A stretch of DNA of 64,000 nt from Eubacteriales bacterium (GTDB lineage Bacteria; Bacillota; Clostridia; Oscillospirales; CAG-382), in the NCBI GenBank assembly GCA_045592105.1, contig JAZNUB010000045.1, positions 260 to 64,259 of the forward strand, given 5' to 3'. The notes under the pieces were generated by a model that was not told where the DNA came from, searched no databases, and was given only the letters and a program-made list of their open reading frames with translations. The position numbers and the translations under genes are program-made. Positions 918 to 24,205 of this stretch are shown here, piece by piece. Numbering within the stretch: the first letter of the stretch is position 1; each line of letters opens with the position of its first letter.

Positions 918-3686
918 TTATTCCTCCACGTCGGCAGAGACTTCCTCGCTTGTTTCGGGCGGGGCTTCCTCGGCGTGGTAATGCTCTATACATATTCTGT
1001 TGCGCGGTCTTCCGCCCACAAGGGTGCCGAAATAATAGGTTTTGTCCTCTTCGGTGTAAAGGTTGGCAAAGAAGGGCTGTGCTTTGCTTTCGGGGAACAC
1101 GTAGCCCTCGGGTATATCCTTGTAGATGCAATCGCCGTCCATTACGAATACAAACGAATCAAAAACTCTTTCGTTATTAAGCCTGAAGGATACGGTTATA
1201 AGATCTTCTTCAGGGCAAGCACAGCCTTCAAAGCAAATAGCTTGCGTTTCTCTGTCGTAAAGCACTTCTATGTGGCAATCGCACTTTTCAATGGGCTGTG
1301 TGCCTGCGGCGAATACGCCTGTCATAACAGCGTTGCCCGTGAAGCTGTTTTTGGCGTTATCGTAGTAGTAAATATCGCGGTAGCAGGCATCGGTTGCAAC
1401 CTTGCCGGAGATAGCACAGTATTTAACCTTTACCATACCCGTAGGGATATCAAACTGCTTTTGATAGCTAACGCCGTCTTCCTCTAAGTTTTCGTATATT
1501 ATCGTAAACACCCTATCCCAAAGGCTTAGCGCGGGGTTGCCTGTAAAGCCGCTTAAGCTCTTATTATTGTCGTAGCCAAACCAAACGCCGCCAACATAGT
1601 TGGGGGTAAAGGCTACGAAATATCTGTCACGGTCGTCGTTTGTGGAACCCGTTTTGCCCGCAACCTCCATTTCAAAGGCTGAATCCAGCGTTACACGAGT
1701 ACCCGTACCGCCTACCTGCGAAACAACGTTCATAAGCATAGAGGTCATAGAGTACGCACTGCTTTCACTTACCGCAACCTTATGCACCTGCTCCTTTTGA
1801 AGCAGTATGCTTTCGCGGCGGTCACGCACCTCGGTATACATTCTGCCCTCGCTGGTTTTGCCGCCGTTTGCTATCATACAGTAGCCTTGCGTCATCTCTC
1901 TAACCGTTACGCCGTGAGTAAAACCACCAAGCGCAAGCGGTGCCAGCGCGATATCGGAATATATCTTGCCGCCTATTTCCTCTCTCCTGATAATGCTTTC
2001 AAAGCCCAAGGTTTCCGTTAGGAAGTTAAAACACTTTTCGGGCGTTAGCTTATCAACAAGGGCAACGGGGATGGTGTTAAGCGATTTTATTACCGCAAAG
2101 TTCGTGTCTATCATCCCGTAATACACGTTAGGCGTGTTGGTGGGCCAATATTCATCGTCGTTTTTAAGCGTGGGCACGTCGTCCACGGCACTGCCTGCCG
2201 TTATAAGCCCTTCCTCGATAGCAAGCGTATACAGCGAAAGCGGCTTGATAGACGAACCGCATTGCCTGCGGCTTTGTGTTGCACGGTTAAAGCCGCGCCC
2301 TTCCTTCTTTTCACCTCTGCCGCCTACTATGCCTAAAATATCGCCTGTTTTTTGGTTCATTATAACCATTGCCGCCTGCGGTATAACGCCCTTGGTGGGG
2401 GCTACGGTTTCCGAACCGAGATACAAATACTCGTTCCCCGATTTTTCAAACACGCTTTCCATCGCATCCTGCACCATCGGGTCCATCGTGGTTATTATCT
2501 GAAGCCCGCCCGAATACAAAAGCCTTGCCGCAGTCATACGGTCGTATCCGTGCTCTTCAATTAAATCGTCTATTACCTCGTCTATAAGAGCGTCCACAAA
2601 ATAGGAGTGTATGGTTTCGCTGTAATCCTCCGCCTCGGCTTCGGTATTAAGCTCCAAATGCCCACGGTAGCAGCTATCAAACTCCTCTTGCGTTATCCTG
2701 CCTTGTTTAAGCATCTCTTCAAGCACAAGGTCGCGCCGTTCCTGATTGTGAAGCGGGTTACGCACGGGGTCATACTTTGTGGGGGATTTGGGTATCGAAG
2801 CAAGCGCGGCACATTCTATAAGCGTTAGATCCTTAAGCTCCTTGCCGAAATACTCCTGCGCGGCGGTTTTAACACCATAGCAGTTTTGCGATAGGAATAT
2901 GGTGTTAAGATACATTTCCAGTATCTCTTCCTTGCTGTACTTCTTCGTTACGTTCAGCGCACGCAGTATCTCCTGCACCTTACGCTGTATCGTAACGTCG
3001 TCCTCTTTAGAAACGTTTTTAATAAGCTGCTGCGTTATAGTAGAGCCGCCCGAACGGTCACCGCTGCCGAAAAAGCCCAAAACTGCGTTGATGGTACGCC
3101 TGTAATCTATACCCGGATGCTCCCAATAACGCTTGTCCTCTATTGCAAGGAACGCGTCTATCAAATCGGCAGGCATCTCCTCGTAGCTTGCCCAAGCGCG
3201 GTTTTCGCTGCCTACAAGACGGTCAAACTCCACTTCCTCGCCGTTATCGTCCACATAGCTTATGGTTGTATAAAGGCTGCTTTCAAATTGCAGGTTGTCA
3301 AGCCCTGTGTAGTTGGGGTCAACGTTGCCCTTGATGTATATTACAAAAGCCACGCAAACCGCCGCAAAGGATATGATACCAACCAAAAACACCGTAAGCA
3401 GTATGTTAATAAGCCACGTTGCAACCTTATAAAGCCCGTACAGCAACACCTGCAAGGGGTAGGCAATGCCCATTTTGGCTATCTTCTTGTGGTTTACCTG
3501 CTTTTTGGCTTTCGGCTTCTTTTCAGGCTCGCCATTTGCCGTTTCTTCCTTCTTTTCTTCTTCGGGCTTAGCGGGCAGGTCAAACTCGGTAGTGCCCTTG
3601 GGGGCAGAAGCTTCGTTTATATCAAACACGTTAGTACCCGTATCGTCCGCCTGCTCGTTTCTTTCAAGCTTTTCGTTCTCGTTCAT
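918..3686 (-). CDS. Class A penicillin-binding protein (bifunctional transglycosylase/transpeptidase, PBP1A-like) with a Cys-rich C-terminal extension
   Basis: 922 aa with a single N-terminal TM helix. GT51 motifs EDKRYWEHPGID and GGSTITQQL are present. Transpeptidase motifs are SSIKP (SxxK), SLN and KTGST. Confidence 0.93.
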   Translation of the reverse strand: MNENEKLERNEQADDTGTNVFDINEASAPKGTTEFDLPAKPEEEKKEETANGEPEKKPKAKKQVNHKKIAKMGIAYPLQVLLYGLYKVATWLINILLTVFLVGIISFAAVCVAFVIYIKGNVDPNYTGLDNLQFESSLYTTISYVDDNGEEVEFDRLVGSENRAWASYEEMPADLIDAFLAIEDKRYWEHPGIDYRRTINAVLGFFGSGDRSGGSTITQQLIKNVSKEDDVTIQRKVQEILRALNVTKKYSKEEILEMYLNTIFLSQNCYGVKTAAQEYFGKELKDLTLIECAALASIPKSPTKYDPVRNPLHNQERRDLVLEEMLKQGRITQEEFDSCYRGHLELNTEAEAEDYSETIHSYFVDALIDEVIDDLIEEHGYDRMTAARLLYSGGLQIITTMDPMVQDAMESVFEKSGNEYLYLGSETVAPTKGVIPQAAMVIMNQKTGDILGIVGGRGEKKEGRGFNRATQSRRQCGSSIKPLSLYTLAIEEGLITAGSAVDDVPTLKNDDEYWPTNTPNVYYGMIDTNFAVIKSLNTIPVALVDKLTPEKCFNFLTETLGFESIIRREEIGGKIYSDIALAPLALGGFTHGVTVREMTQGYCMIANGGKTSEGRMYTEVRDRRESILLQKEQVHKVAVSESSAYSMTSMLMNVVSQVGGTGTRVTLDSAFEMEVAGKTGSTNDDRDRYFVAFTPNYVGGVWFGYDNNKSLSGFTGNPALSLWDRVFTIIYENLEEDGVSYQKQFDIPTGMVKVKYCAISGKVATDACYRDIYYYDNAKNSFTGNAVMTGVFAAGTQPIEKCDCHIEVLYDRETQAICFEGCACPEEDLITVSFRLNNERVFDSFVFVMDGDCIYKDIPEGYVFPESKAQPFFANLYTEEDKTYYFGTLVGGRPRNRICIEHYHAEEAPPETSEEVSADVEE

Positions 3687-15028: not shown

Positions 15029-16060
15029 TTAAAGCATATCCGCAAGCTCAAGCAGCAAGCGTTCCGTTTTCTTCCAGCCTAAGCAGGGGTCGGTTATGGA
15101 TTTACCGTAAACACCCTCGCCTATCTTTTGTGCGCCGTCCTCTATATAGCTTTCTATCATCATACCCTTAACAAGCTTTTTGATATCTGCATTGTAGCGG
15201 CAGTTGTTTATTATTTCCTTGGCTATACGTATCTGCTCAAGAGGCTTTTTGCCGGAGTTTGCGTGGTTACAGTCTATAATAACGCCGGGGTTTTTAAGGT
15301 CGCTCTTTTCTGCGTAAGCACCGCAAAGGAACAAAAGGTCCTCGTAGTGGTAGTTGGGAAGCGATTGACCGTGCTTATTAACGTAGCCGCGAAGGATTGC
15401 GTGCGCGTAGGGGTTGCCTTGGGAGTGCGCCTCCCACCCGCGATAGATAAAGGTGTGCTTATGCTGTGCGGCTGTTATGGAGTTCATCATAACGGAAATA
15501 TCGCCGCTTGTGGGGTTCTTCATACCAACGGGGGTATCAAGCCCGCTTGCGGTAAGGCGGTGCTGTTGGTCCTCCACAGAGCGCGCGCCTATTGCAATGT
15601 AGCCTATCAGGTCGTCAAGATACTTGGTGTTTTCGGGGTACAGCATCTCGTCCGCGCAGGAGAAGCCCGTTTCTTTTATAGCGCGAATGTGCAGCTCGCG
15701 GATGGTTACTATGCCCTTAAACATATCGGGCTTGCCTTCGGGGTTGGGCTGGTGCAGTATGCCCTTGTAGCCGTCGCCCGTTGTACGCGGCTTGTTGGTG
15801 TATATGCGCGGAACGATGTATATTTTATCTATTATCTTTTCCTGCAAAACGCGAAGACGGCTAATATAATCAATAACGCTGTCCTCATTATCCGCAGAGC
15901 AGGGGCCTATTATCATAAGCAGCCTGTCGTCCTTGCCGCTGAGGATGGCTTTAATCTCTCTGTCACGCTTTTGCACTATCTCCGACATCTCGCCCGTAAG
16001 CGGGTACATCTCCTTAACCTCCATCGGAATAGCAAGCTTTCTTTCAAATTGCATGTTCAT
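15029..16060 (-). CDS. aroF: 3-deoxy-7-phosphoheptulonate (DAHP) synthase, class I
   Basis: 343 aa with the IIGPCSADNEDSV motif and length typical of class I-alpha DAHP synthases. Confidence 0.92.
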   Translation of the reverse strand: MNMQFERKLAIPMEVKEMYPLTGEMSEIVQKRDREIKAILSGKDDRLLMIIGPCSADNEDSVIDYISRLRVLQEKIIDKIYIVPRIYTNKPRTTGDGYKGILHQPNPEGKPDMFKGIVTIRELHIRAIKETGFSCADEMLYPENTKYLDDLIGYIAIGARSVEDQQHRLTASGLDTPVGMKNPTSGDISVMMNSITAAQHKHTFIYRGWEAHSQGNPYAHAILRGYVNKHGQSLPNYHYEDLLFLCGAYAEKSDLKNPGVIIDCNHANSGKKPLEQIRIAKEIINNCRYNADIKKLVKGMMIESYIEDGAQKIGEGVYGKSITDPCLGWKKTERLLLELADML

Positions 16061-16084
16061 AATATATACCTTCTTTGTTGTAAA

Positions 16085-16963
16085 TTATTTTTTATCAAAC
16101 CAAGCGCGCCTTTCGGTGGATAGGCGCATTTTTGCCCTCATCCCTTCGGTATCGCCGTTTTCAAGCATACCGCGGAAAGCCGTAAACTCCTCTAAAAAAG
16201 CATCCATCTGCCTAAGAAGCGCTTCCTTGTTCATATTGAACAGCTCGCTCCACATAGCGTCGTTTATCCGTGCGATACGCGTTAGGTCACGGAACGAGTC
16301 ACCCGTGTAGTCCACAAGCCGCTTGTTATCACAGCAGGTCATAAGCGATACCGCAATGCAGTGCGTTAGCTGGGATACAAAGCCTATTATCTCATCGTGC
16401 TCCTCAGGCGTTAGCACGCTTATCCGCGCAAAGCCAAGCATCGCACCCAAGTCCTTGCAAAGCTCAATAGCGCCGTGGGTGTTTTTTGCGGTGGGTACAA
16501 CTATATAGTTTGCACCGTAAAACATAGTTTCCGTGCTGTTTTCAACGCCGTACACCTCGCGTCCTGCCATAGGATGCGCCGCTATAAACTCCGCATCGGG
16601 GCGGAGGATATCCTGCACCTCGTATACAACGCTGCCTTTCACACCTGTAACGTCCGTTATTATAACGCCGCTTTTAAAATGCTGCTGGTTATCCTTTATC
16701 CATTGCACAAACACCTTCGGATACAAGCCGAATATAACAAGGTCTGCCGCGTTTATAAGGCGCGGGTCGGGCGTTATGGAGCCTGCATCTATTATCCCGT
16801 GCTCTATCGCGTAGTTTATGGTTTCCTGTTTGCGGGATATTGCCGTTACCGTAAAGCCCAAGCGTTTAAGAGCCTTCGCATAGCTGCCGCCCATCAAGCC
16901 AAGCCCCACTATAAGCACGCGCATCTTCTTATTAATAAGCATTTTAAAGCCGTTTTCACTCAT
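16085..16963 (-). CDS. tyrA: Prephenate dehydrogenase
   Basis: It has a Rossmann motif (VGLGLMGGS) and an HPMAG motif. The start was trimmed to ATG 16963 (MSENG), which has a GAGGTG RBS 8 nt upstream. Confidence 0.9.
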   Translation of the reverse strand: MSENGFKMLINKKMRVLIVGLGLMGGSYAKALKRLGFTVTAISRKQETINYAIEHGIIDAGSITPDPRLINAADLVIFGLYPKVFVQWIKDNQQHFKSGVIITDVTGVKGSVVYEVQDILRPDAEFIAAHPMAGREVYGVENSTETMFYGANYIVVPTAKNTHGAIELCKDLGAMLGFARISVLTPEEHDEIIGFVSQLTHCIAVSLMTCCDNKRLVDYTGDSFRDLTRIARINDAMWSELFNMNKEALLRQMDAFLEEFTAFRGMLENGDTEGMRAKMRLSTERRAWFDKK

Positions 16964-18158
16964 ATATATCACACCTCACGTTAATTTGCTTAAGCATATC
17001 AAAAAACGAAGGCAGGCTTTTATTAACAGCCTCTATCCCTTCTATCGCGCCGCCAACGGTTGATAGCAGTACGGTCAGCGCCATAACAACGCGGTGGTCG
17101 TTATGCCCGCAAAGCGGCTCCGTAGGCGCACACACTCCGTTTTCAACGGTTATGCGGTTATCCTCCACGGTAACGCGCACACCGCATTTTTCAAGCTCCC
17201 TTGCCATCGCCGCGCCGCGGTCACTTTCCTTTATTTTAAGGCGTGCCGTGCCTGTAAATACACCGCCGTTTTTGCAAGCGGCAAGCGCAAACAGCACGGG
17301 CCCTAAATCGGGGCAATCCGCTATATCAAGCGTTGGCTTGCTTAGCGAAAGCATTGGAAAATACATTTTATAAACCCTGTCACCCTGAAGGCTGTTTCTG
17401 TCAAGCCCGTTTATCGTAACCGCGCCGCCAAGATAGTTGAAGGCGTCAAAAAACGCGGCGTTGGAGTAATCCCCCTCTACCGAAAGCGAACGGCAAATAT
17501 ACTTTTGCCCACCTTTAATATAAAGGCTTCTTTCGTTTTTCCAATAGGCACTTACGCCGAAGCTGTTAAGTGCCGAAAGCGTCATATCAATATATGGCTT
17601 GCTTTCTATTTTGCCCGTTAGGTGTAGCACGCTGTCCCCCTCCGCAAGCGGAAGCGCAAACAACAGCCCGCTTATAAATTGGCTGGATACGTTTGCCGGC
17701 AGGGAATAGGTGCCGCTTTTTATTACGCCCTTAACCTTTAAAACGCCACCCTCAAGGCTGTATTGCAAGCCGTTTTTCTCACACATAGCCTTGTATATAT
17801 CCAAAGGCCGCGCCATAAGACGGCTGCTGCCCGTTAGGGTGCTTTCCGTATCGGAAAGCAGGCATATAGGCACGAAAAACCTAAGCGTACTGCCGCATTC
17901 GTTGCAGTTAAGAGTTTCTTGCGGCTTTATGCTACCGTTGCCGTGTACCGTTACCGTGCCGTTTGAGTATTCGCACTCAACACCAAGCGATTTTAAACAG
18001 CTTATGGTTGCCTTAATGTCCTCCGAGGCTTCAACCCCGCTTATAACGCTAACACCGTTTGCAAGCCCCGCGCAGATAAGTAGCCTGTGCGCCATGCTTT
18101 TGGAGGGCGGTGCTGTTATAACGCCCTTTGCGGCGGATTTGTGTATCAACGCTTTCAT
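16956..18158 (-). CDS. aroA: 3-phosphoshikimate 1-carboxyvinyltransferase (EPSP synthase)
   Basis: 400 aa with PPSKSMAHR and LGCEC-like EPSPS motifs. It shares a TAATG overlap with aroQ. Confidence 0.93.
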   Translation of the reverse strand: MKALIHKSAAKGVITAPPSKSMAHRLLICAGLANGVSVISGVEASEDIKATISCLKSLGVECEYSNGTVTVHGNGSIKPQETLNCNECGSTLRFFVPICLLSDTESTLTGSSRLMARPLDIYKAMCEKNGLQYSLEGGVLKVKGVIKSGTYSLPANVSSQFISGLLFALPLAEGDSVLHLTGKIESKPYIDMTLSALNSFGVSAYWKNERSLYIKGGQKYICRSLSVEGDYSNAAFFDAFNYLGGAVTINGLDRNSLQGDRVYKMYFPMLSLSKPTLDIADCPDLGPVLFALAACKNGGVFTGTARLKIKESDRGAAMARELEKCGVRVTVEDNRITVENGVCAPTEPLCGHNDHRVVMALTVLLSTVGGAIEGIEAVNKSLPSFFDMLKQINVRCDIYE

Positions 18159-18592
18159 TAGCCTTTACCGCCTTCCATAAGAAGGCGCATAGCTTCTGTA
18201 TAGCCGTTTATGCCGTGCCCCGTTATCGTGGCGATGCAAGCAAGCCTTACATAGCTTATCTGCCTAAAGTCCTCACGTTCTTCTACCTTTGATATGTGAA
18301 CCTCAACCGTGGGGATGCCAACCGCCTTTAAAGCATCAAGCAAAGCAATGCTTGTGTGCGTGTACGCACCGGGGTTTATCACTATCCCGTCCACATTACC
18401 GTACGCCTCTTGTATCTTGTCCACAAGCGCGCCCTCGTGGTTGGATTGGTATATCTCTGCCTCTATCCCGTTTTCGCTTGCAAACGCACATATTTTATCG
18501 CATAGCGTTTTGTAGTTTTGGCTTCCGTATACGGCGGGCTCTCTTATCCCCAGCATATTGATGTTTGGCCCGTTTATTACAAGAATCTTCAA
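18158..18592 (-). CDS. aroQ: Type II 3-dehydroquinate dehydratase
   Basis: 144 aa with the motifs LVINGPNINMLG, QSNHEG and INPGAYTHTS. Confidence 0.95.
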   Translation of the reverse strand: MKILVINGPNINMLGIREPAVYGSQNYKTLCDKICAFASENGIEAEIYQSNHEGALVDKIQEAYGNVDGIVINPGAYTHTSIALLDALKAVGIPTVEVHISKVEEREDFRQISYVRLACIATITGHGINGYTEAMRLLMEGGKG

Positions 18593-19824
18593 GAAAAATG
18601 CCTTCTTTCTATATCGTTTGCAACGCTTTGGGCGTTGCCGTTGATTTTTATAACCGTATCTGCGGTAGCTATATAGGTGCCGTACCTTTCGTTATAGCGC
18701 GCCTTTATTGCCTCTGCACTGCTTGCAAGCGGTCTATCGGGTGTGGGAAGCAATTGCTCCAGCGGTCTGTCCAAAAAATAGATGCGCCCGTTTTGCTTTA
18801 AGGCTTCAACGTTTGCGCTTCGCATTGCCGCACCGCCGCCCGTTGCTATTATACAGCCGCTGTTTGCCGATAGCTCTTTTATAACAGCCGTTTCAACGCT
18901 TCTGAAATACTCCTCGCCGTGCTTTGCAAAGATATCGGGTATCTCCATCCCGCATTTTTGCTTTATACCCTCGTCCGTATCGTAAAAGGGGCGGTTAAGC
19001 GTTTTGGCAAGAAGCGCGCCAACCGTGCTTTTTCCGCTTGCGGGCATCCCCGTAAGCACTATGTTTTCCTTTTGCGCTAATAGCGTGCCGTGTATTTTTT
19101 CCGTAAGCGCGCCTTCGTATTCCGTGTTAAAGAACAGCTCCGATGCAAGCACCGCTTGCTTTACAAGCATATACAGCCCGCCCTCTGCTTTGATTTTTAA
19201 GGAAAGCGCTTTGGATATCAGTTTTGTACGAAGCGGGTTGTATACAACGTCCACAACCGCGCTTAAGCCTTTAAATAAGCATAGGTCTATCGGAGTTGCC
19301 TCTATTTGCGGAAACATACCGCAAGGCGTTGTGTTGATGATAACCCCCGCATCGTGGTGGGCTTTAACGGCTTCCTCGTAGCTTAAAGCACCGTCCCTTG
19401 CGCTTCTGCTAACCTTGTATACCTCACAAGCCCCCATTATATTAGCGGCAACAAACGCGGTTTTGCTTGTGCCGCCCGTGCCAAGTATTAAAACCTTTTT
19501 GCCTTTAACGCCGCCAACGCGCTCTATAAGCGACTTTAGCCCCCCTATATCGGTGTTGTAGCCGTACAGCTTGCCGCCACGGTTTACAACCGTGTTTACC
19601 GCGCCTATTTGCGCCGCTTCCTCGCTTATCCAATCCAAATACGGTATAACCGCTTGCTTGTAGGGGATGGTTACGTTTATCCCTTTAAAGCTTTTGCTTT
19701 TCATAAAGGCGTCAAGCTCTGTGCTTGCAAGCTCCTTAAGACAGTAGCCGTATTCGCCAATCATGCCGTGTATCACAGCCGAAAAGCTGTGCGGCAGTTT
19801 CTCGCCTATCAAGCCGTATTCCAT
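18589..19824 (-). CDS. aroE/aroK: Fused shikimate dehydrogenase (N-terminal) and shikimate kinase (C-terminal)
   Basis: 411 aa. AroE motifs are GEKLPHSFS and NVTIPYK. After about residue 255 comes a P-loop kinase module (LTGMPASGKSTVG ... FYDTD). Confidence 0.88.
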   Translation of the reverse strand: MEYGLIGEKLPHSFSAVIHGMIGEYGYCLKELASTELDAFMKSKSFKGINVTIPYKQAVIPYLDWISEEAAQIGAVNTVVNRGGKLYGYNTDIGGLKSLIERVGGVKGKKVLILGTGGTSKTAFVAANIMGACEVYKVSRSARDGALSYEEAVKAHHDAGVIINTTPCGMFPQIEATPIDLCLFKGLSAVVDVVYNPLRTKLISKALSLKIKAEGGLYMLVKQAVLASELFFNTEYEGALTEKIHGTLLAQKENIVLTGMPASGKSTVGALLAKTLNRPFYDTDEGIKQKCGMEIPDIFAKHGEEYFRSVETAVIKELSANSGCIIATGGGAAMRSANVEALKQNGRIYFLDRPLEQLLPTPDRPLASSAEAIKARYNERYGTYIATADTVIKINGNAQSVANDIERRHFS

Positions 19825-19827
19825 AAG

Positions 19828-20919
19828 CTAACTCCTTAAGTAGTCCGTACCGAAACGAAGCGCAAGCATATCGCAAAGTGCTATCGCCACGGCGGCATCC
19901 GCTACCACGCGCGCCCTGTGGATTATGGCGGGGTCGTGCCTGCCGTTTATTTGAAGTAAGGCGTTCTCACCCTTGAGGAAATCCACCGTGTCCTGTTTTT
20001 TGTAGATGGACGGTGTTGGCTTTATCGCACAGCGCACTATAATGGGCATACCGTTGCTTATACCGCCGTTTATACCGCCGTTGTTGTTGGTTTTTGTGCG
20101 TATAATGCCGCCTTCTGTATAGAAGCTGTCATTAGCGCGGCTTCCCTGCATATCGGCTATGCCAAAGCCTGCCCCAAACTCCACACCCTTAACGGCGGGG
20201 ATAGAAAACAGTATATGTGCCAGCGTGCTTTCAAGGCTGTCAAACCACGGCTCGCCAACGCCAGCGGGCAAGCCAAGCACCGCCGTTTCCAATACGCCGC
20301 CAACGCTGTCCCCTTCGCTTGCCGCTTGTACTATCGCGGCCTTCATAAGCTCGCCGCGCTCATCGTTAAGCACGCCAAACTGCTTGTTTTCGAGAGCCTC
20401 TATATCCTTTGCTATATCGTTAAACTCCGCATCGTTTATCTCTGCACAGCGTTTTATATGCGTGCCTATGAATATCCCCTTGCTTTTAAGCGCGCTTTGC
20501 GCTATTGCGCCTGCCGCCACCAACGGCGCAGTAAGCCTACCGCTGAAATGGCCGCCGCCGCGATAATCCTCAAACCCGTGGTACTTGCAAAACGCCGTGT
20601 AGTCCGCGTGGGCGGGGCGCGCAAGCGCGCGTGTTGCGGCGTAATCCTTGCTTTGCGTGTTGGTGTTTGGTATAAGTATGCAAATAGGAGTGCCCGTGGT
20701 GTAGCCGTTAAACACACCGCTGCAAATGGTAAACAGGTCCTCCTCTTTTCTTGCCGTGGATATTTTCCCTATCGCACGGCGAAGCTCCAAGCGGCTTTTT
20801 ATATATTCCTCGTCAACCTTAACGCCGGGCGCCATACCGTCAAGCACGGCTCCTATCTGTGCGCCGTGGCTTTCACCGAAAATGCTTACCGTAACGCTTT
20901 GCCCAAAGGTGTTTTTCAT
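19828..20919 (-). CDS. aroC: Chorismate synthase
   Basis: 363 aa with the motifs FGESHG, RPAHADY and GRHDP. Confidence 0.95.
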   Translation of the reverse strand: MKNTFGQSVTVSIFGESHGAQIGAVLDGMAPGVKVDEEYIKSRLELRRAIGKISTARKEEDLFTICSGVFNGYTTGTPICILIPNTNTQSKDYAATRALARPAHADYTAFCKYHGFEDYRGGGHFSGRLTAPLVAAGAIAQSALKSKGIFIGTHIKRCAEINDAEFNDIAKDIEALENKQFGVLNDERGELMKAAIVQAASEGDSVGGVLETAVLGLPAGVGEPWFDSLESTLAHILFSIPAVKGVEFGAGFGIADMQGSRANDSFYTEGGIIRTKTNNNGGINGGISNGMPIIVRCAIKPTPSIYKKQDTVDFLKGENALLQINGRHDPAIIHRARVVADAAVAIALCDMLALRFGTDYLRS

Positions 20920-21938
20920 ATCCCCAAGCCTCCGTTTAAAAATGCTTTAGCCGTTTGTGTAAGCTCTGCGGCGGATAGCTTTTTAAAGTATCCCTCTCCC
21001 GCTTCGTCCACCATAACCGCTATAACGCCGTTTTCCGCCATCTTTTTGTCGTGCAGCATGGCTTTACAAGCTTCGTCTGCCCCCACGCTTGCCGCAAGCG
21101 GCAGCCCCAGCTTTTTAAGCACAGCCGTTAGGCGCGTGCGGAGTGTGGCAGAGCACATCGGCAGCATCCCCAACGCCACACATTCGCCATGGTACAGGCT
21201 GCCGTTTGCGGCACTCTCTATCCCGTGCCCTATCGTGTGCCCGAAGTTAAGCATACGGCGAAGCCCGCTTTCCTTTTCGTCCTTTTCAACTATCGTTTTC
21301 TTTATGTTAAGACAGCTTATAATTATTTCGTCTATGTTTTTATCTATATCCTCGTTTTCAAACAGCCAAAACAGCTTTTTGTCCGAGGTAAGCGCCATTT
21401 TAACAGCCTCTGCCAGCCCGTTTGCCCATTGGCGGCGGGTCAGGGTAGAAAGCACATCTGGGTCTACCAGAACGCGCTTAGGTTGATAGAACGCGCCTAC
21501 AATGTTCTTTACACCGCCAAAGTTTACGGCGGTTTTGCCACCGATAGAGGAATCTATTTGCGATAGCACCGTGGTGGGTATGTTGTAGAAATCAACACCG
21601 CGCATATAGCTTGCCGCCGCAAAGCCCGCCAAATCGCCAACAACGCCGCCGCCTACCGCAACAACGCAGTCCGCACGCGTAAACCCTTTTTCAAGCATTG
21701 CGGATAAAAGCTTTTCAAAGCCCTTTAGGGATTTGCTTTGCTCGCCCTCGTCTATCGTTACAACGGTAGGCTCCTTGCAAGCGCTTGCCACCGTTTCCGC
21801 ATAGTTTGCGGGCACGCCGCTGTCCGTTATAACAAGCACCCTCCTGTTAAGCTTCAAAAGCTCGCCCGCTTTGCAAAGTGCGCCGCGCTCTACTATTATA
21901 TCATAGCTGTTTTCGCCTAAAGCTACGGGTATTATCAT
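20916..21938 (-). CDS. aroB: 3-dehydroquinate synthase
   Basis: 340 aa with the motifs GGGVVGDLAGFAA and LNFGHTIGH. It overlaps aroC by 4 nt. Confidence 0.94.
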   Translation of the reverse strand: MIIPVALGENSYDIIVERGALCKAGELLKLNRRVLVITDSGVPANYAETVASACKEPTVVTIDEGEQSKSLKGFEKLLSAMLEKGFTRADCVVAVGGGVVGDLAGFAAASYMRGVDFYNIPTTVLSQIDSSIGGKTAVNFGGVKNIVGAFYQPKRVLVDPDVLSTLTRRQWANGLAEAVKMALTSDKKLFWLFENEDIDKNIDEIIISCLNIKKTIVEKDEKESGLRRMLNFGHTIGHGIESAANGSLYHGECVALGMLPMCSATLRTRLTAVLKKLGLPLAASVGADEACKAMLHDKKMAENGVIAVMVDEAGEGYFKKLSAAELTQTAKAFLNGGLGI

Positions 21939-23047
21939 CAGTTGCCGCTTCCTTTCTTAAGGTCTATCTCGGCAGAGTATCTGCCAACCACCTTCAGCTT
22001 ATCGCAATGCTCCTTAAGCTCCGATAGCATCTGCTTGCCCTCGTCAGAGCTTTCGTCCCCCTCTGCTTCAACGTAGAAGTAATATTGCCACGCAGGCTCG
22101 CCCATCGGGCGGCTTCTAAGCGCCTTCATATTGAAGCCGTGCTTACCTATTACGTTGATAGCCTGCGCCAAAGCACCTGCAACGTGGTTTACCGTAAACA
22201 GCAGGAAGAACGTACTGTCCTTACCGTATGCCGCCTTGTTATCCACCCTGGAGAACACTGCAAAGCGCGTTGTATTCTGTGCGCTTGCGTTTATATCGTG
22301 GTCAATAACCGTAAGCCCGTATAACGCCGCCGTTTCCGCGCTTGCTATTGCCGCCGTGTGTATATCCCCGCGCTCGCTAACGTTTTTTGCCGCTATCGCC
22401 GTGTTGGTTGCCTGTATCTGCTCAAAGCCGTGCTCCTTAATATACCGCGCGCATTGGCTTAACGCTTGCGGATGGCTTATAACGCGCTTGATGTCAGATG
22501 CCTTTGCGCCCTCAAGCCCTAAAAGGTTTTGGCTTATTCTAAGGTCGTATACACCGTTTACGTATAAACTGCCGTCAAACATTAAATCGGTAACCTGCCC
22601 AACCTCACCTGCAAAGCTGTTTTCTATCGGAAGCACGGCACAGTCACACTCCCCGTCCACAACGGCGCTGTAAGCACTTTTAAAATCGGGGTACGAAACC
22701 GTTTCACCGTCGGGGAAAATGCGTGAAGCCGCTATGTGTGCAAACGCACCCTCAACGCCGCTGTATGCAACGCGTAATCCATTCATTAAGCGGTGCTGAT
22801 ACTGCTTTGAAAGCTCCATGTTGTACTTTAGAAAGTTGATGTAGTAGGAGCGTATATCCTCGTCCTCAACGTAAGCAGAGTTTCTGGCTATAACCGCCGC
22901 TTCACGCGCTTCGTCAAGGATAGGCAAGCCGCGCTCCGCCTTATACTTAGCAACCTGCTTTACCGCGTTCATACGCTGTGTAAAAAGCACTGCAAGCTCC
23001 TTGTCTATACGGTTTATCTCATCCCTTGCCAACGATAGCTTTTCCAT
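21938..23047 (-). CDS. pheA: Bifunctional chorismate mutase / prephenate dehydratase (P-protein)
   Basis: The start was trimmed to MEKLSLARDEI (ATG 23047, GGAGG RBS). The protein has a CM type 2 N-terminus, a PDT domain (VAYSGVEGAF, TRF motif) and a C-terminal ACT domain. Confidence 0.92.
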   Translation of the reverse strand: MEKLSLARDEINRIDKELAVLFTQRMNAVKQVAKYKAERGLPILDEAREAAVIARNSAYVEDEDIRSYYINFLKYNMELSKQYQHRLMNGLRVAYSGVEGAFAHIAASRIFPDGETVSYPDFKSAYSAVVDGECDCAVLPIENSFAGEVGQVTDLMFDGSLYVNGVYDLRISQNLLGLEGAKASDIKRVISHPQALSQCARYIKEHGFEQIQATNTAIAAKNVSERGDIHTAAIASAETAALYGLTVIDHDINASAQNTTRFAVFSRVDNKAAYGKDSTFFLLFTVNHVAGALAQAINVIGKHGFNMKALRSRPMGEPAWQYYFYVEAEGDESSDEGKQMLSELKEHCDKLKVVGRYSAEIDLKKGSGN

Positions 23048-23062
23048 ACCAACCTCCGAAAC

Positions 23063-23112
23063 AAAATAAAAAAGCCCACAGCCTTTTTGACAACGCCAAA
23101 AAGCGGTGGACC
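23063..23112 (-). terminator. Intrinsic terminator inside the pheA leader (attenuator)
   Basis: The minus strand reads TCCACCGCTTTTTG-GCGTTGT-CAAAAAGGCTGTGGG followed by CTTTTTTATTTT. That gives a stem of about 14 bp with one mismatch and one bulge, ending 15 nt before the pheA RBS. Confidence 0.75.
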
Positions 23113-23137
23113 ATACCTTTAACAAAACCGAACCCGT

Positions 23138-23209
23138 TTAGCGGGCAAGACCTTGTGCGGTGCAATCCATCGCGCATATAAAGTAGTAATAATAAAAGCC
23201 TTTAAACAT
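23138..23209 (-). CDS. Candidate Phe/Tyr-rich leader peptide (23 aa, MFKGFYYYYFICAMDCTAQGLAR)
   Basis: ATG at 23209 is preceded by AGGAAAGGTG 9 nt upstream, and the TAA stop is at 23138-23140. Seven of the first ten codons are Phe or Tyr. The ORF lies between the promoter and the leader terminator. Confidence 0.7.
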   Translation of the reverse strand: MFKGFYYYYFICAMDCTAQGLAR

Positions 23210-23241
23210 TGCACCAAACACCTTTCCTAAAACTTTTCTGT

Positions 23242-23270
23242 ATTTTACACCCATTAATACGCTTTGTCAA
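23242..23270 (-). promoter_or_regulatory. SigA-type promoter of the aromatic operon
   Basis: The minus strand reads TTGACA (23270-23265), a 17-nt spacer, then TAAAAT (23247-23242). Confidence 0.7.
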
Positions 23271-23375
23271 GCCCCTTTTTGCATAAAAACGGAATAATTA
23301 TTATTTTTGCGTTTTTCCACCTTTTGGTATACTCAACAAAAGGTATTAAATTTAGATTAAAATGTTCATTTTCCA

Positions 23376-23404
23376 TTGACACAAAACAAAGCCTGTGATA
23401 TTAT
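23376..23404 (+). promoter_or_regulatory. SigA-type promoter of the cohesin/dockerin gene
   Basis: TTGACA, a 17-nt spacer, then TATTAT with TGA immediately upstream (extended -10). It lies 43 nt before the ATG at 23447, with an RBS GGAATAGGTGG. Confidence 0.65.
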
Positions 23405-23446
23405 TACATATAAGAAGTTTAAGCTTGAAGGAATAGGTGGTTATAT

Positions 23447-24205
23447 ATGAAAAAATACTTGAATAGGCTTTTGGCTGTTATGCTTGTTGCCGTTTTGGTA
23501 TGCGCTTGCATCCCTGCCGTAACGGCTTCCGCGGCAGAGGCGGAGTTTGATGTGGTTGTTACCCCTGATAAAAACAGGGTAACCTATGGCGATACCGTTA
23601 CCTTTACCGTGGCGATTGAAAACATTACTGCTTCGGGCGGTTTGCTTTCGGTGGACGTGCCTTTCCGTTTTGACCCTAACGTGTTTGAGTTCGTTGGCGA
23701 AACAGCGGTTTTCCCCACCGTTTGGCAAAACCCGCAGGATTTTAGCTACAAAACCGATAAGAACGGCCTTTTGTGGCTTAGAGTGTTGGAGGATGGGGAT
23801 GAGTTTTCCTCCACCGCAGGCTGTACCGAAAACAGGGCTATATGCTTTAGCGTTACGCTAAAGGTTAAGGACGGCGCAAAGCTTGCCGGCACTACCGTTA
23901 CCACTAATGGGGACGGGGCTTTTGAAGCGGCTTGCGGCACCTGTGCGGATGGGCAGTGTACCGTTGCGTTGGGCGCAGGTAAAAGCGGCACCGTTACGAT
24001 AGTTGAGTTTATTATGGGTGACGTTAATGGTGACGGCGTGGCTGACAATACCGATGCCGCTGTGATTTTGCGTTATGACGCGGGCGTTATTAACCTTACG
24101 GACGGGCAGCTTAAGGCAGGCGACGTTAACGGTGACGGCGGTGTTGATAATCTTGACGCGGCAAAAATATTGCAGTATGATGCAGGCATTATAGATAGCC
24201 TTTAA
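23447..24205 (+). CDS. Secreted protein with a cohesin-like module and a C-terminal dockerin (two DVNGDG Ca-binding repeats)
   Basis: A signal peptide is present (MKKYLNRLLAVMLVAVLVCACIPAVTASA). A roughly 160-aa beta-sandwich-like region has a cohesin-like pattern (GDTVTFTVAIENITASGGLLSVDVPFRFDPNVFEFVGE). The dockerin reads GDVNGDGVADNTDAAVILRYDAG ... GDVNGDGGVDNLDAAKILQYDAG. Confidence 0.75.
   Translation: MKKYLNRLLAVMLVAVLVCACIPAVTASAAEAEFDVVVTPDKNRVTYGDTVTFTVAIENITASGGLLSVDVPFRFDPNVFEFVGETAVFPTVWQNPQDFSYKTDKNGLLWLRVLEDGDEFSSTAGCTENRAICFSVTLKVKDGAKLAGTTVTTNGDGAFEAACGTCADGQCTVALGAGKSGTVTIVEFIMGDVNGDGVADNTDAAVILRYDAGVINLTDGQLKAGDVNGDGGVDNLDAAKILQYDAGIIDSL

Follow-up and report, generated by a model that had tools for sequence, protein, structure and literature searches.

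Leader-peptide attenuation, in which the progress of a ribosome along a short open reading frame (ORF) decides whether a terminator forms, is a textbook mechanism in Proteobacteria, where it is represented by pheL-pheA and by the trp, his, leu and thr leaders, and T-box leaders are the usual regulators of aromatic genes in Firmicutes. The E. coli pheL-pheA leader possesses a short ORF with codons for the end product, three exclusive helices formed by successive RNA segments (1:2, 2:3 and 3:4) and a terminator located just before the gene for chorismate mutase-prephenate dehydratase (CM-PDT), and stalling of the ribosome leads to antitermination. An element of the same layout is present upstream of pheA in a 64,000-nt stretch of contig JAZNUB010000045.1 (hereafter the window), which comes from a Clostridia-class bacterium of the order Oscillospirales; all coordinates of the leader element are window positions on the minus strand. 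This element is probably a ribosome-mediated transcription attenuator, which would control the pheA-shikimate-tyrA operon by sensing charged tRNA-Tyr and/or tRNA-Phe, and leaders of its architecture are referred to here as class I.

Class I has no sequence or covariance-model similarity to E. coli pheL, and the window operon adds the whole shikimate pathway and tyrA. Moreover, unlike in the Proteobacterial leaders, the regulatory run of class I mixes Tyr and Phe codons and is placed outside segment 1, in the loop that joins it to segment 2, while segment 1 is the leader's own Shine-Dalgarno sequence (SD) and AUG, and the antiterminator is a 60-75-nt hairpin. A T-box resembles class I in being a 5' leader of amino-acid operons that reports tRNA charging through a choice between terminator and antiterminator, but it binds uncharged tRNA directly and needs no translation.

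The nearest described leaders of aromatic genes belong to other lineages. According to a summary of Neshat et al. 2014 in PMC11802643, an aroR leader peptide containing Phe-Tyr-Phe precedes aroF in Corynebacterium glutamicum, where attenuation is relieved by ribosome stalling and responds to Phe, not Tyr. By that description, aroR is similar to class I as a mixed Phe/Tyr leader ahead of an aromatic biosynthesis operon, whereas it comes from another phylum (Actinobacteria), has three regulatory codons instead of the five to seven of class I, and precedes aroF. In Acholeplasma, a predicted upstream ORF with Phe codons, uORFC-13-1, lies before aroF with an intrinsic terminator adjoining (PMC8632094). 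Compared by description, it shares with class I a Firmicutes-related lineage and a shikimate-pathway gene downstream, but it is a U run coding for at least one Phe, with no Tyr/Phe alternation described, in another lineage, before another gene and with no Rfam match.

Within Firmicutes, leader-peptide attenuators have been reported for ilv-leu in Staphylococcus aureus, with genetic support (PMC5794164), for hisS/hisZ in the Bacillus cereus group (PMC2965389), and for his genes in Clostridioides difficile and relatives and in Erysipelotrichales (PMC9413887). They belong to the same mechanism class and phylum as class I and exist alongside T-boxes, but they sense Leu/Ile or His, their sequences are unrelated, and none is described for aromatic amino acids or Oscillospirales. 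With such attenuators shown or predicted in S. aureus, the B. cereus group, C. difficile, Erysipelotrichales and Acholeplasma, the remark of an earlier note on the window, made from its sequence alone, that this layout would be unusual for Firmicutes was overstated. A literature search, which left most subscription journals outside its reach, found no Tyr/Phe leader described in Clostridia or Oscillospirales. Since leader-peptide attenuators are known or predicted in Firmicutes and aroR is described in Corynebacterium, class I, which is absent from Rfam 15 and set apart from aroR and uORFC-13-1 by description, would represent a new family of a known kind; the mechanism proper would be the textbook one and not a new one.

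To define the family, a PheA protein search with one genome per GTDB species yielded 80 loci with 58-80% PheA identity, nearly all of them in gut or rumen metagenome-assembled genomes (MAGs) labelled Clostridia, Oscillospiraceae, Ruminococcaceae or Acutalibacteraceae. A class I leader, which is characterized by a short ORF with an aromatic run directly 5' of pheA and by the architecture seen in the window, is present at 26 of the 80 orthologous loci, with peptides such as MLRSFYYYYFITAMGCTARGLAR, MFKLYAYFYYFMTAMDRCIVPGLAD, MRNNFKSYYYFYFTEAMDCCVVRSLAG and MFFNCYFYYYFISAID; 23 non-redundant leaders formed the set for the codon, fold and promoter counts given below. As well, a gene-blind scan of metagenome contigs with the pattern GCGGTGG-N40-65-TCCATCGC-N6-AAARTA returned 38 stretches, 20 of which are true class I leaders, the remainder being chance matches in coding DNA.

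Usable downstream sequence was available for 18 of the 20 metagenome leaders. Full pheA-aro operons follow in 13 cases, while L094 leads to a partial pheA-like match (chorismate-mutase region) and then aroB, and in three cases (L090, L100 and L112) the leader stands directly before aroB-aroC-aroE/K. In the last one, L111, an ABC transporter is located approximately 70-2400 nt downstream, made up of a substrate-binding lipoprotein (PF04392), a permease (BPD_transp_2) and an ATPase, which is a candidate for a Tyr/Phe importer under class I control. Judging from these downstream genes, the class I module appears to go with genes for aromatic amino-acid supply and not with pheA alone. Neither the window nor the remainder of the 80 loci yielded a second copy of the motif. 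Class I would add a well-supported family of cis-regulators for aromatic amino-acid synthesis in many uncultured Oscillospirales of gut and rumen, which may improve operon annotation and metabolic inference for MAGs. In L036 and L039, approximately 245 extra nt lie between the class I terminator and pheA (a 300-nt tail), compared with only 56 nt after the near-identical leader of L037, and this additional stretch might represent either an insertion or a further regulatory element.

In the window itself, the promoter, SD, 23-codon aromatic ORF, 8-bp helix, terminator and pheA ribosome-binding site (RBS) that the earlier note had listed were all located on the minus strand (Table 1). The two strands of the 64-kb window contain 629 short ATG ORFs, and at least six aromatic residues in eight occur only in the leader ORF and in its in-frame extension from an upstream ATG at 23254, which overlaps the -10 box. 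An aromatic short ORF arises in only 36 of 20,000 shuffles of the leader, and chance does not explain its presence. All intergenic gaps of the window were also scanned for further leader peptides, that is, short ORFs with single-amino-acid runs, and none was convincing. The promoter agrees with the consensus at 11 of 12 positions, and transcription would start near 23235, approximately 26 nt ahead of the leader ORF, as placed from the promoter spacing. In all 23 non-redundant leaders, TTGACA and a -10 hexamer at 16-17 nt are found at the same relative position (for L062 and L064, the -10 hexamer TATCAT was identified by eye), followed in the related leaders by a GAAAGG or AGGAG-type SD 8-12 nt ahead of the ATG.

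Comparison of the leaders shows that four segments of the RNA could form three mutually exclusive helices, namely P1 (segments 1:2, the anti-antiterminator), AT (2:3, the antiterminator) and T (3:4, the terminator). The core of the antiterminator joins GCG(A)UGG(A) to (U)CCA(C)CGC, a strand that also makes up the base of the terminator 5' arm. This core is paired in 22 of 22 leaders aligned with MAFFT, and two compensatory changes are independent of each other: GCG/CGC is replaced by GAG/CUC in L005 and L025, and UGG/CCA is replaced by UUG/CAA in L062 and L064. Core cells are paired in 87.5% of cases versus 30-54% with the partner slid, the observed core pairing or covariation score was reached by none of 500 shuffles, and RNAalifold predicts the identical core helix with no structure supplied. 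The A.C mismatch in the middle of the core (GCG-A-UGG with CCA-C-CGC; 23170 and 23106 in the window) is kept in 21 of 23 leaders and becomes A-U only in L005 and L025.

The fold of the antiterminator was computed for RNA from GCG to the terminator loop only, to represent a leader whose segment 1 is occupied by a ribosome and whose segment 4 has still to be transcribed. Under this setting, the hairpin closed by the core is the minimum-energy fold in all 23 leaders, at -13 to -29 kcal/mol. That of the window is a 71-nt hairpin of -27.2 kcal/mol (23173-23103), in which GCGAUGGAUUGCACC and GGUAUGGUCCACCGC form 13 pairs over 15 positions. On average, the antiterminator occupies 72% of the nucleotides of the P1 3' strand, together with a median of 7 nt at the base of the terminator 5' arm. 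Equilibrium folding with a masked ribosome was also tried; it closed helices around the ribosome and gave mostly the terminator, was judged physically unrealistic, and was replaced by the folding of RNA 3' of the ribosome. A small hairpin, GCCCGCUAAACGGGU (23146-23132), straddles the leader stop codon at the tip of the antiterminator, is followed by UCGGUUUUGU, and was flagged as terminator-like in a simple scan, and it may be a pause or weak termination point.

Anchored on the conserved GCGATGG, the 23 leaders exhibit five consecutive codon columns before the spacer that follow the pattern T-[A/T]-[T/C] and encode Tyr or Phe. In four of the columns all 23 leaders have T at position 1, and in the fifth 21 of 23 do. 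A or T occupies position 2, save for one TGT in L028, and position 3 is restricted to T or C, with no instance of the A or G by which TAY would become a stop codon. The last codon of the run is TTT in every leader, the spacer codons that follow are free in sequence, and GCG-ATG-GAT is in frame with the conserved ATG throughout. The codons ahead of the run number from 4 to 9 and those past "AMD" from 0 to 15, and both termini vary in sequence. Such a column pattern is what selection on Tyr/Phe codons would predict, and it would not fit an untranslated AU-rich loop.

The same terminator/antiterminator pair might nevertheless belong to an untranslated RNA switch, such as a riboswitch, a T-box-like tRNA sensor or a protein-binding leader, with the ORF incidental. 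Most Firmicutes amino-acid operons use T-boxes or RNA-binding proteins, T-boxes precede some of the orthologous operons (L014 and L020), and the GCGAUGG/CCACCGC core is near-invariant beyond what pairing needs. We consider such a switch unlikely, because the triplet periodicity is strict, in frame with a conserved ATG and SD and free of stop-creating third bases, and because sequence and length vary freely between the conserved blocks, unlike in a ligand pocket. Moreover, Rfam 15 was scanned permissively over 22800-23600 (cmscan, E up to 10) and at gathering threshold over the whole window, and in neither scan was a T-box (RF00230), riboswitch, Phe_leader, leu/phe leader or other curated leader family matched; only six sub-threshold chance matches appeared, for instance snoZ267, ctRNA_p42d and PyrR (17.8 bits against a cut-off of 54). 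The identical search detects T-boxes in three related loci, L014 (530-784), L020 (1634-1879) and L073 (2672-2874, minus strand), so the T-box negative at the window is meaningful.

The peptide motif (F/Y)5-x-x-A-M-D looks conserved at first sight, as might be expected of a TnaC-type arrest peptide that senses free Tyr or Phe inside the ribosome, or of a small hydrophobic peptide with a function of its own. As a functional or arrest motif, however, "AMD" was rejected, since its variants covary with a distant RNA strand: E-M-D in L005 and L025 and A-I-D in L062 and L064 coincide with the compensatory changes in CCACCGC. Because GCGAUGG is the 5' antiterminator strand and pairs with CCACCGC, the conservation of "AMD" is best read as an RNA constraint. 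Residues outside the run are not conserved, and the ORF stops right after A-I-D (L062 and L064) or 15 codons on (L012). An arrest peptide of this type would also have the wrong regulatory sign, with a high level of the amino acid inducing its own biosynthetic operon, and it is therefore very unlikely.

The 8-bp helix of the earlier note, GGTGCAAT (23215-23208) with ATTGCACC (23166-23159), does exist as part of the longer P1; its role has to be corrected, as it would be the anti-antiterminator and would also sequester the leader start codon, the antiterminator itself not having been located at that stage. In P1, the SD, the AUG and the first codons pair with sequence beginning 4-10 nt into or after GCGAUGGA. 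In 22 of 23 leaders the energy of P1 lies between -17 and -28 kcal/mol (-19.7 kcal/mol for the extended duplex of the window), L070 being without P1, and its complementarity stands out from dinucleotide shuffles with a mean z of -3.3 across the family. When strands were swapped between species, the own P1 partner of each leader was among the best-ranked, and the paired sequences are diverse (GGUGCAAUG, CUGUAUAUGG, GUAUAAUG, GUACGAUGC and ACGGUAUCAUG). The start codon lies inside the fitted helix in all 22 leaders tested. As the MAFFT alignment of P1 is gapped in 4 of 21 rows, the formal pair count is conservative, and a structure-anchored extraction was used; in this alignment 66.7% of positions are paired, compared with 59.7% in shuffles and 33-50% when slid. 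P1 is thus predicted to sequester the leader's own SD and AUG and to exclude the antiterminator.

This sequestration of the leader SD and AUG, and the attenuators of other lineages that carry an RBS-sequestering hairpin in place of a terminator (PMC9413887), would also suit a mainly translational control, in which leader translation or P1 governs mRNA stability or pheA translation and not termination. The chance of this is similarly slight, since all 23 leaders end in a GC-rich hairpin with a run of at least five U directly after it, and since the pheA RBS of the related leaders is placed 6-20 nt past the U-tract, in no conserved helix. In the window, the U-tract reads U6AU4 and lies 16 nt ahead of the pheA ATG.

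For the attenuator, the following course of events is proposed. When Tyr or Phe is scarce, the ribosome would stall on the FYYYYF run, within the loop that separates segment 1 from segment 2. Whichever codon of the run occupied the A site, the ribosome would extend approximately to the end of the spacer and no further. The two spacer codons would leave GCGAUGG just beyond the leading edge of the stalled ribosome, whose bulk would block P1. Segment 2 would then pair with segment 3 once this is transcribed, the base of the terminator would be consumed, and RNA polymerase would enter pheA. When Tyr and Phe are plentiful, the ribosome would cross segment 2 to the stop codon inside AT (immediately after segment 2 in L062 and L064), T would form, and transcription would end near 23063. 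With no ribosome, P1 would fold before segment 3 exists, hide the SD and AUG and favour T. The idea of the earlier note that stalling on the Tyr/Phe run prevents the terminator from forming is supported by comparison, as relatives keep both the leader ORF and its aromatic run, with a signature visible in the codons, a mutually exclusive and covarying antiterminator exists (23173-23103), and no T-box or riboswitch covariance model matches.

Table 1. Features of the putative Tyr/Phe attenuator and of its operon in the window.
Feature	Positions	Strand	Basis or remark
-35 hexamer TTGACA	23265..23270	-	Sequence; exact TTGACA at the equivalent position in 23/23 related leaders
-10 hexamer TAAAAT, 17-nt spacer from -35	23242..23247	-	Sequence
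Segment 1, 5' strand of predicted anti-antiterminator P1 (SD, AUG and flanks), core GGUGCAAU at 23215-23208	23207..23229	-	
SD AGGAAAGGTG of leader ORF	23219..23228	-	Sequence
Leader ORF, 23 codons and TAA, encoding MFKGFYYYYFICAMDCTAQGLAR (F or Y at seven of the first ten residues)	23138..23209	-	ATG 23209-23207, TAA 23140-23138; homologous ORFs at 26 genome and 20 metagenome loci
Regulatory codon run TTT TAT TAT TAC TAC TTT (F5-F10), proposed stall site	23180..23197	-	T-[A/T]-[T/C] columns in relatives
Spacer codons ATA TGC, from last Phe codon to antiterminator strand	23174..23179	-	Exactly two spacer codons in 23/23 leaders
Segment 2, GCGAUGGAUUGCACC, predicted to pair with segment 1 via AUUGCACC (23166-23159) or with segment 3	23159..23173	-	
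Central hairpin within the antiterminator, holding the leader stop codon and small hairpin GCCCGCUAAACGGGU (23146-23132)	23122..23156	-	
Segment 3, GGUAUGGUCCACCGC, antiterminator 3' strand, overlapping the base of the terminator 5' arm	23103..23117	-	
Hairpin of the intrinsic terminator (segments 3 and 4), 17 bp, a single mismatch and a single bulge, then CTTTTTTATTTT ending at 23063	23073..23112	-	-19.2 kcal/mol
U-tract UUUUUUAUUUU	23063..23073	-	Sequence
pheA RBS GGAGG (23057-23053) and start codon ATG (23047-23045)	23045..23057	-	
Regulated operon pheA, aroB, aroC, aroE/aroK fusion, aroQ, aroA, tyrA, DAHP synthase (8 genes)	15029..23047	-	Pfam

Several points weigh against such an attenuator. 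Termination at 23063, translation of the ORF and the response to Tyr and Phe are predictions from sequence. The promoter match of the window is not significant by itself (2 sites found versus 1.7 expected), the leader as a whole is no more stable than its shuffles (z -0.27), the P1 of the window is only weakly above shuffles (z -1.3), and GCGAUGG and CCACCGC are conserved, as said above, to an extent that exceeds the needs of pairing. With neither a ribosome nor segment 4, AT is already part of the minimum-energy fold for 16 of 23 leaders, and the default-off lock formed by P1 would rest on folding order and not on stability. Even with segment 1 masked, the terminator is favoured over the antiterminator at equilibrium in 20 of 23 leaders (-35.8 versus -33.9 kcal/mol in the window), which implies that the switch would have to be kinetic, as in the E. 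coli trp leader. The chance-level promoter match, the unremarkable stability of the leader and the equilibrium advantage of the terminator would also suit an arrangement without any conditional switch, in which a chance short ORF lies beside a terminator that is constitutive and leaky or beside a hairpin for RNA stability, but this is the least probable of the alternatives, as the aromatic ORF is unique in the window save for its own extension and rare in shuffles, has been conserved, its spacing unchanged, in dozens of species and ahead of three different aromatic gene sets, and is accompanied by alternative helices that covary.

A further difficulty concerns the synchrony of the two machines. 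Bacillota are classed as runaway, with RNA polymerase outrunning ribosomes, and the purine bias of the sense strand has been attributed to Rho avoidance under runaway transcription (PMC13323073). The sense strand of the 54 window ORFs is purine-rich, with a mean of 54.6% that is equal for genes on either strand, and this matches the bias of the runaway class. If RNA polymerase does outrun ribosomes, sensing could therefore not use physical coupling of the E. coli style. In the leader peptide of B. subtilis tlrB, NusG-dependent pausing gives time for translation (PMC12288461). The NusG pause motif TTNTTT, within the T-rich codon run, was considered as a synchronising signal for class I and rejected, since it occurs in 13 of 23 leaders and is absent from that of the window.

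One tentative way in which the attenuator could work under such conditions is that P1 acts as a timer, although we regard this as doubtful. P1 would close the SD and AUG approximately 45-60 nt after their emergence, only early-loading ribosomes would report tRNA charging, and the other transcripts would terminate, while the GCGAUGG/CCACCGC core with its A.C mismatch might add a pause or factor-binding signal that synchronises both machines. If P1 were such a timer, the widespread family would be a natural test bed for leader-peptide attenuation without transcription-translation coupling. Firmicutes are thought to uncouple transcription from translation, and the rigid spacing from the stall site to the antiterminator offers a testable system for kinetic versus physical coupling.

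The orthologous operons also carry sensors of other kinds. In L014 and L020, pheA lies inside longer operons that carry a T-box leader, and L014 possesses, in addition, a third type of aromatic short ORF, MGFNRFFYYFYFTCDCPSSVIPG, approximately 1.2 kb upstream of pheA. A second aromatic leader class, which has no relation to class I, is found approximately 70-200 nt upstream of pheA in L017, L034, L035, L041, L047, L053, L066 and L075 (the pheA start being near 3001 in most of them). Its ORFs are longer than those of class I and show a motif like F-x-F-V/A-R-F/Y-F/Y-A-G-x-Y-F-Y, for instance FTFVRFFAGWYFYTQNTKAVRM. Pairing joins the last codons and the stop, e.g. GUCCGAAUG-UAA, to the terminator at its loop and 3' arm (UCGGACAG), and since the paired sequences differ between species, the second class may be read as a simpler two-state attenuator. 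Related species thus appear to swap sensors for the aromatic pathway. Orthologous aro operons within one bacterial order would accordingly be served by at least three interchangeable sensors, namely two unrelated leader-peptide classes and T-boxes, which would amount to regulatory turnover. As well, a Gut-1 sRNA (RF01706) was found just above threshold at L019 (6669-6753, minus strand), with no relation to the leader.

Downstream of the window leader, Pfam confirms what the earlier note had said of the operon, namely that it makes Phe and Tyr through pheA, the shikimate pathway and tyrA. In operon order, the domains are those of CM_2, PDT and ACT (pheA), DHQ synthase, chorismate synthase, shikimate dehydrogenase with shikimate kinase, DHQase II, EPSP synthase, prephenate dehydrogenase and DAHP synthase, and the operon therefore covers all seven shikimate steps together with the Phe and Tyr branches. 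The genes from 23047 to 15029 overlap or nearly abut. Shikimate dehydrogenase and shikimate kinase are encoded by a single ORF of 411 aa (18589-19824, minus strand), an aroE/aroK fusion.

Finally, the divergent neighbour of the leader (23447-24205, plus strand) codes for a protein of 252 aa in which a cohesin domain is combined with a type I dockerin domain, which points to a cellulosome-type system in the host. In the intergenic region that it has in common with the leader promoter, this neighbour possesses a promoter-like site of its own, TTGACA-17-TATTAT with a TG extension, at 23376-23404.

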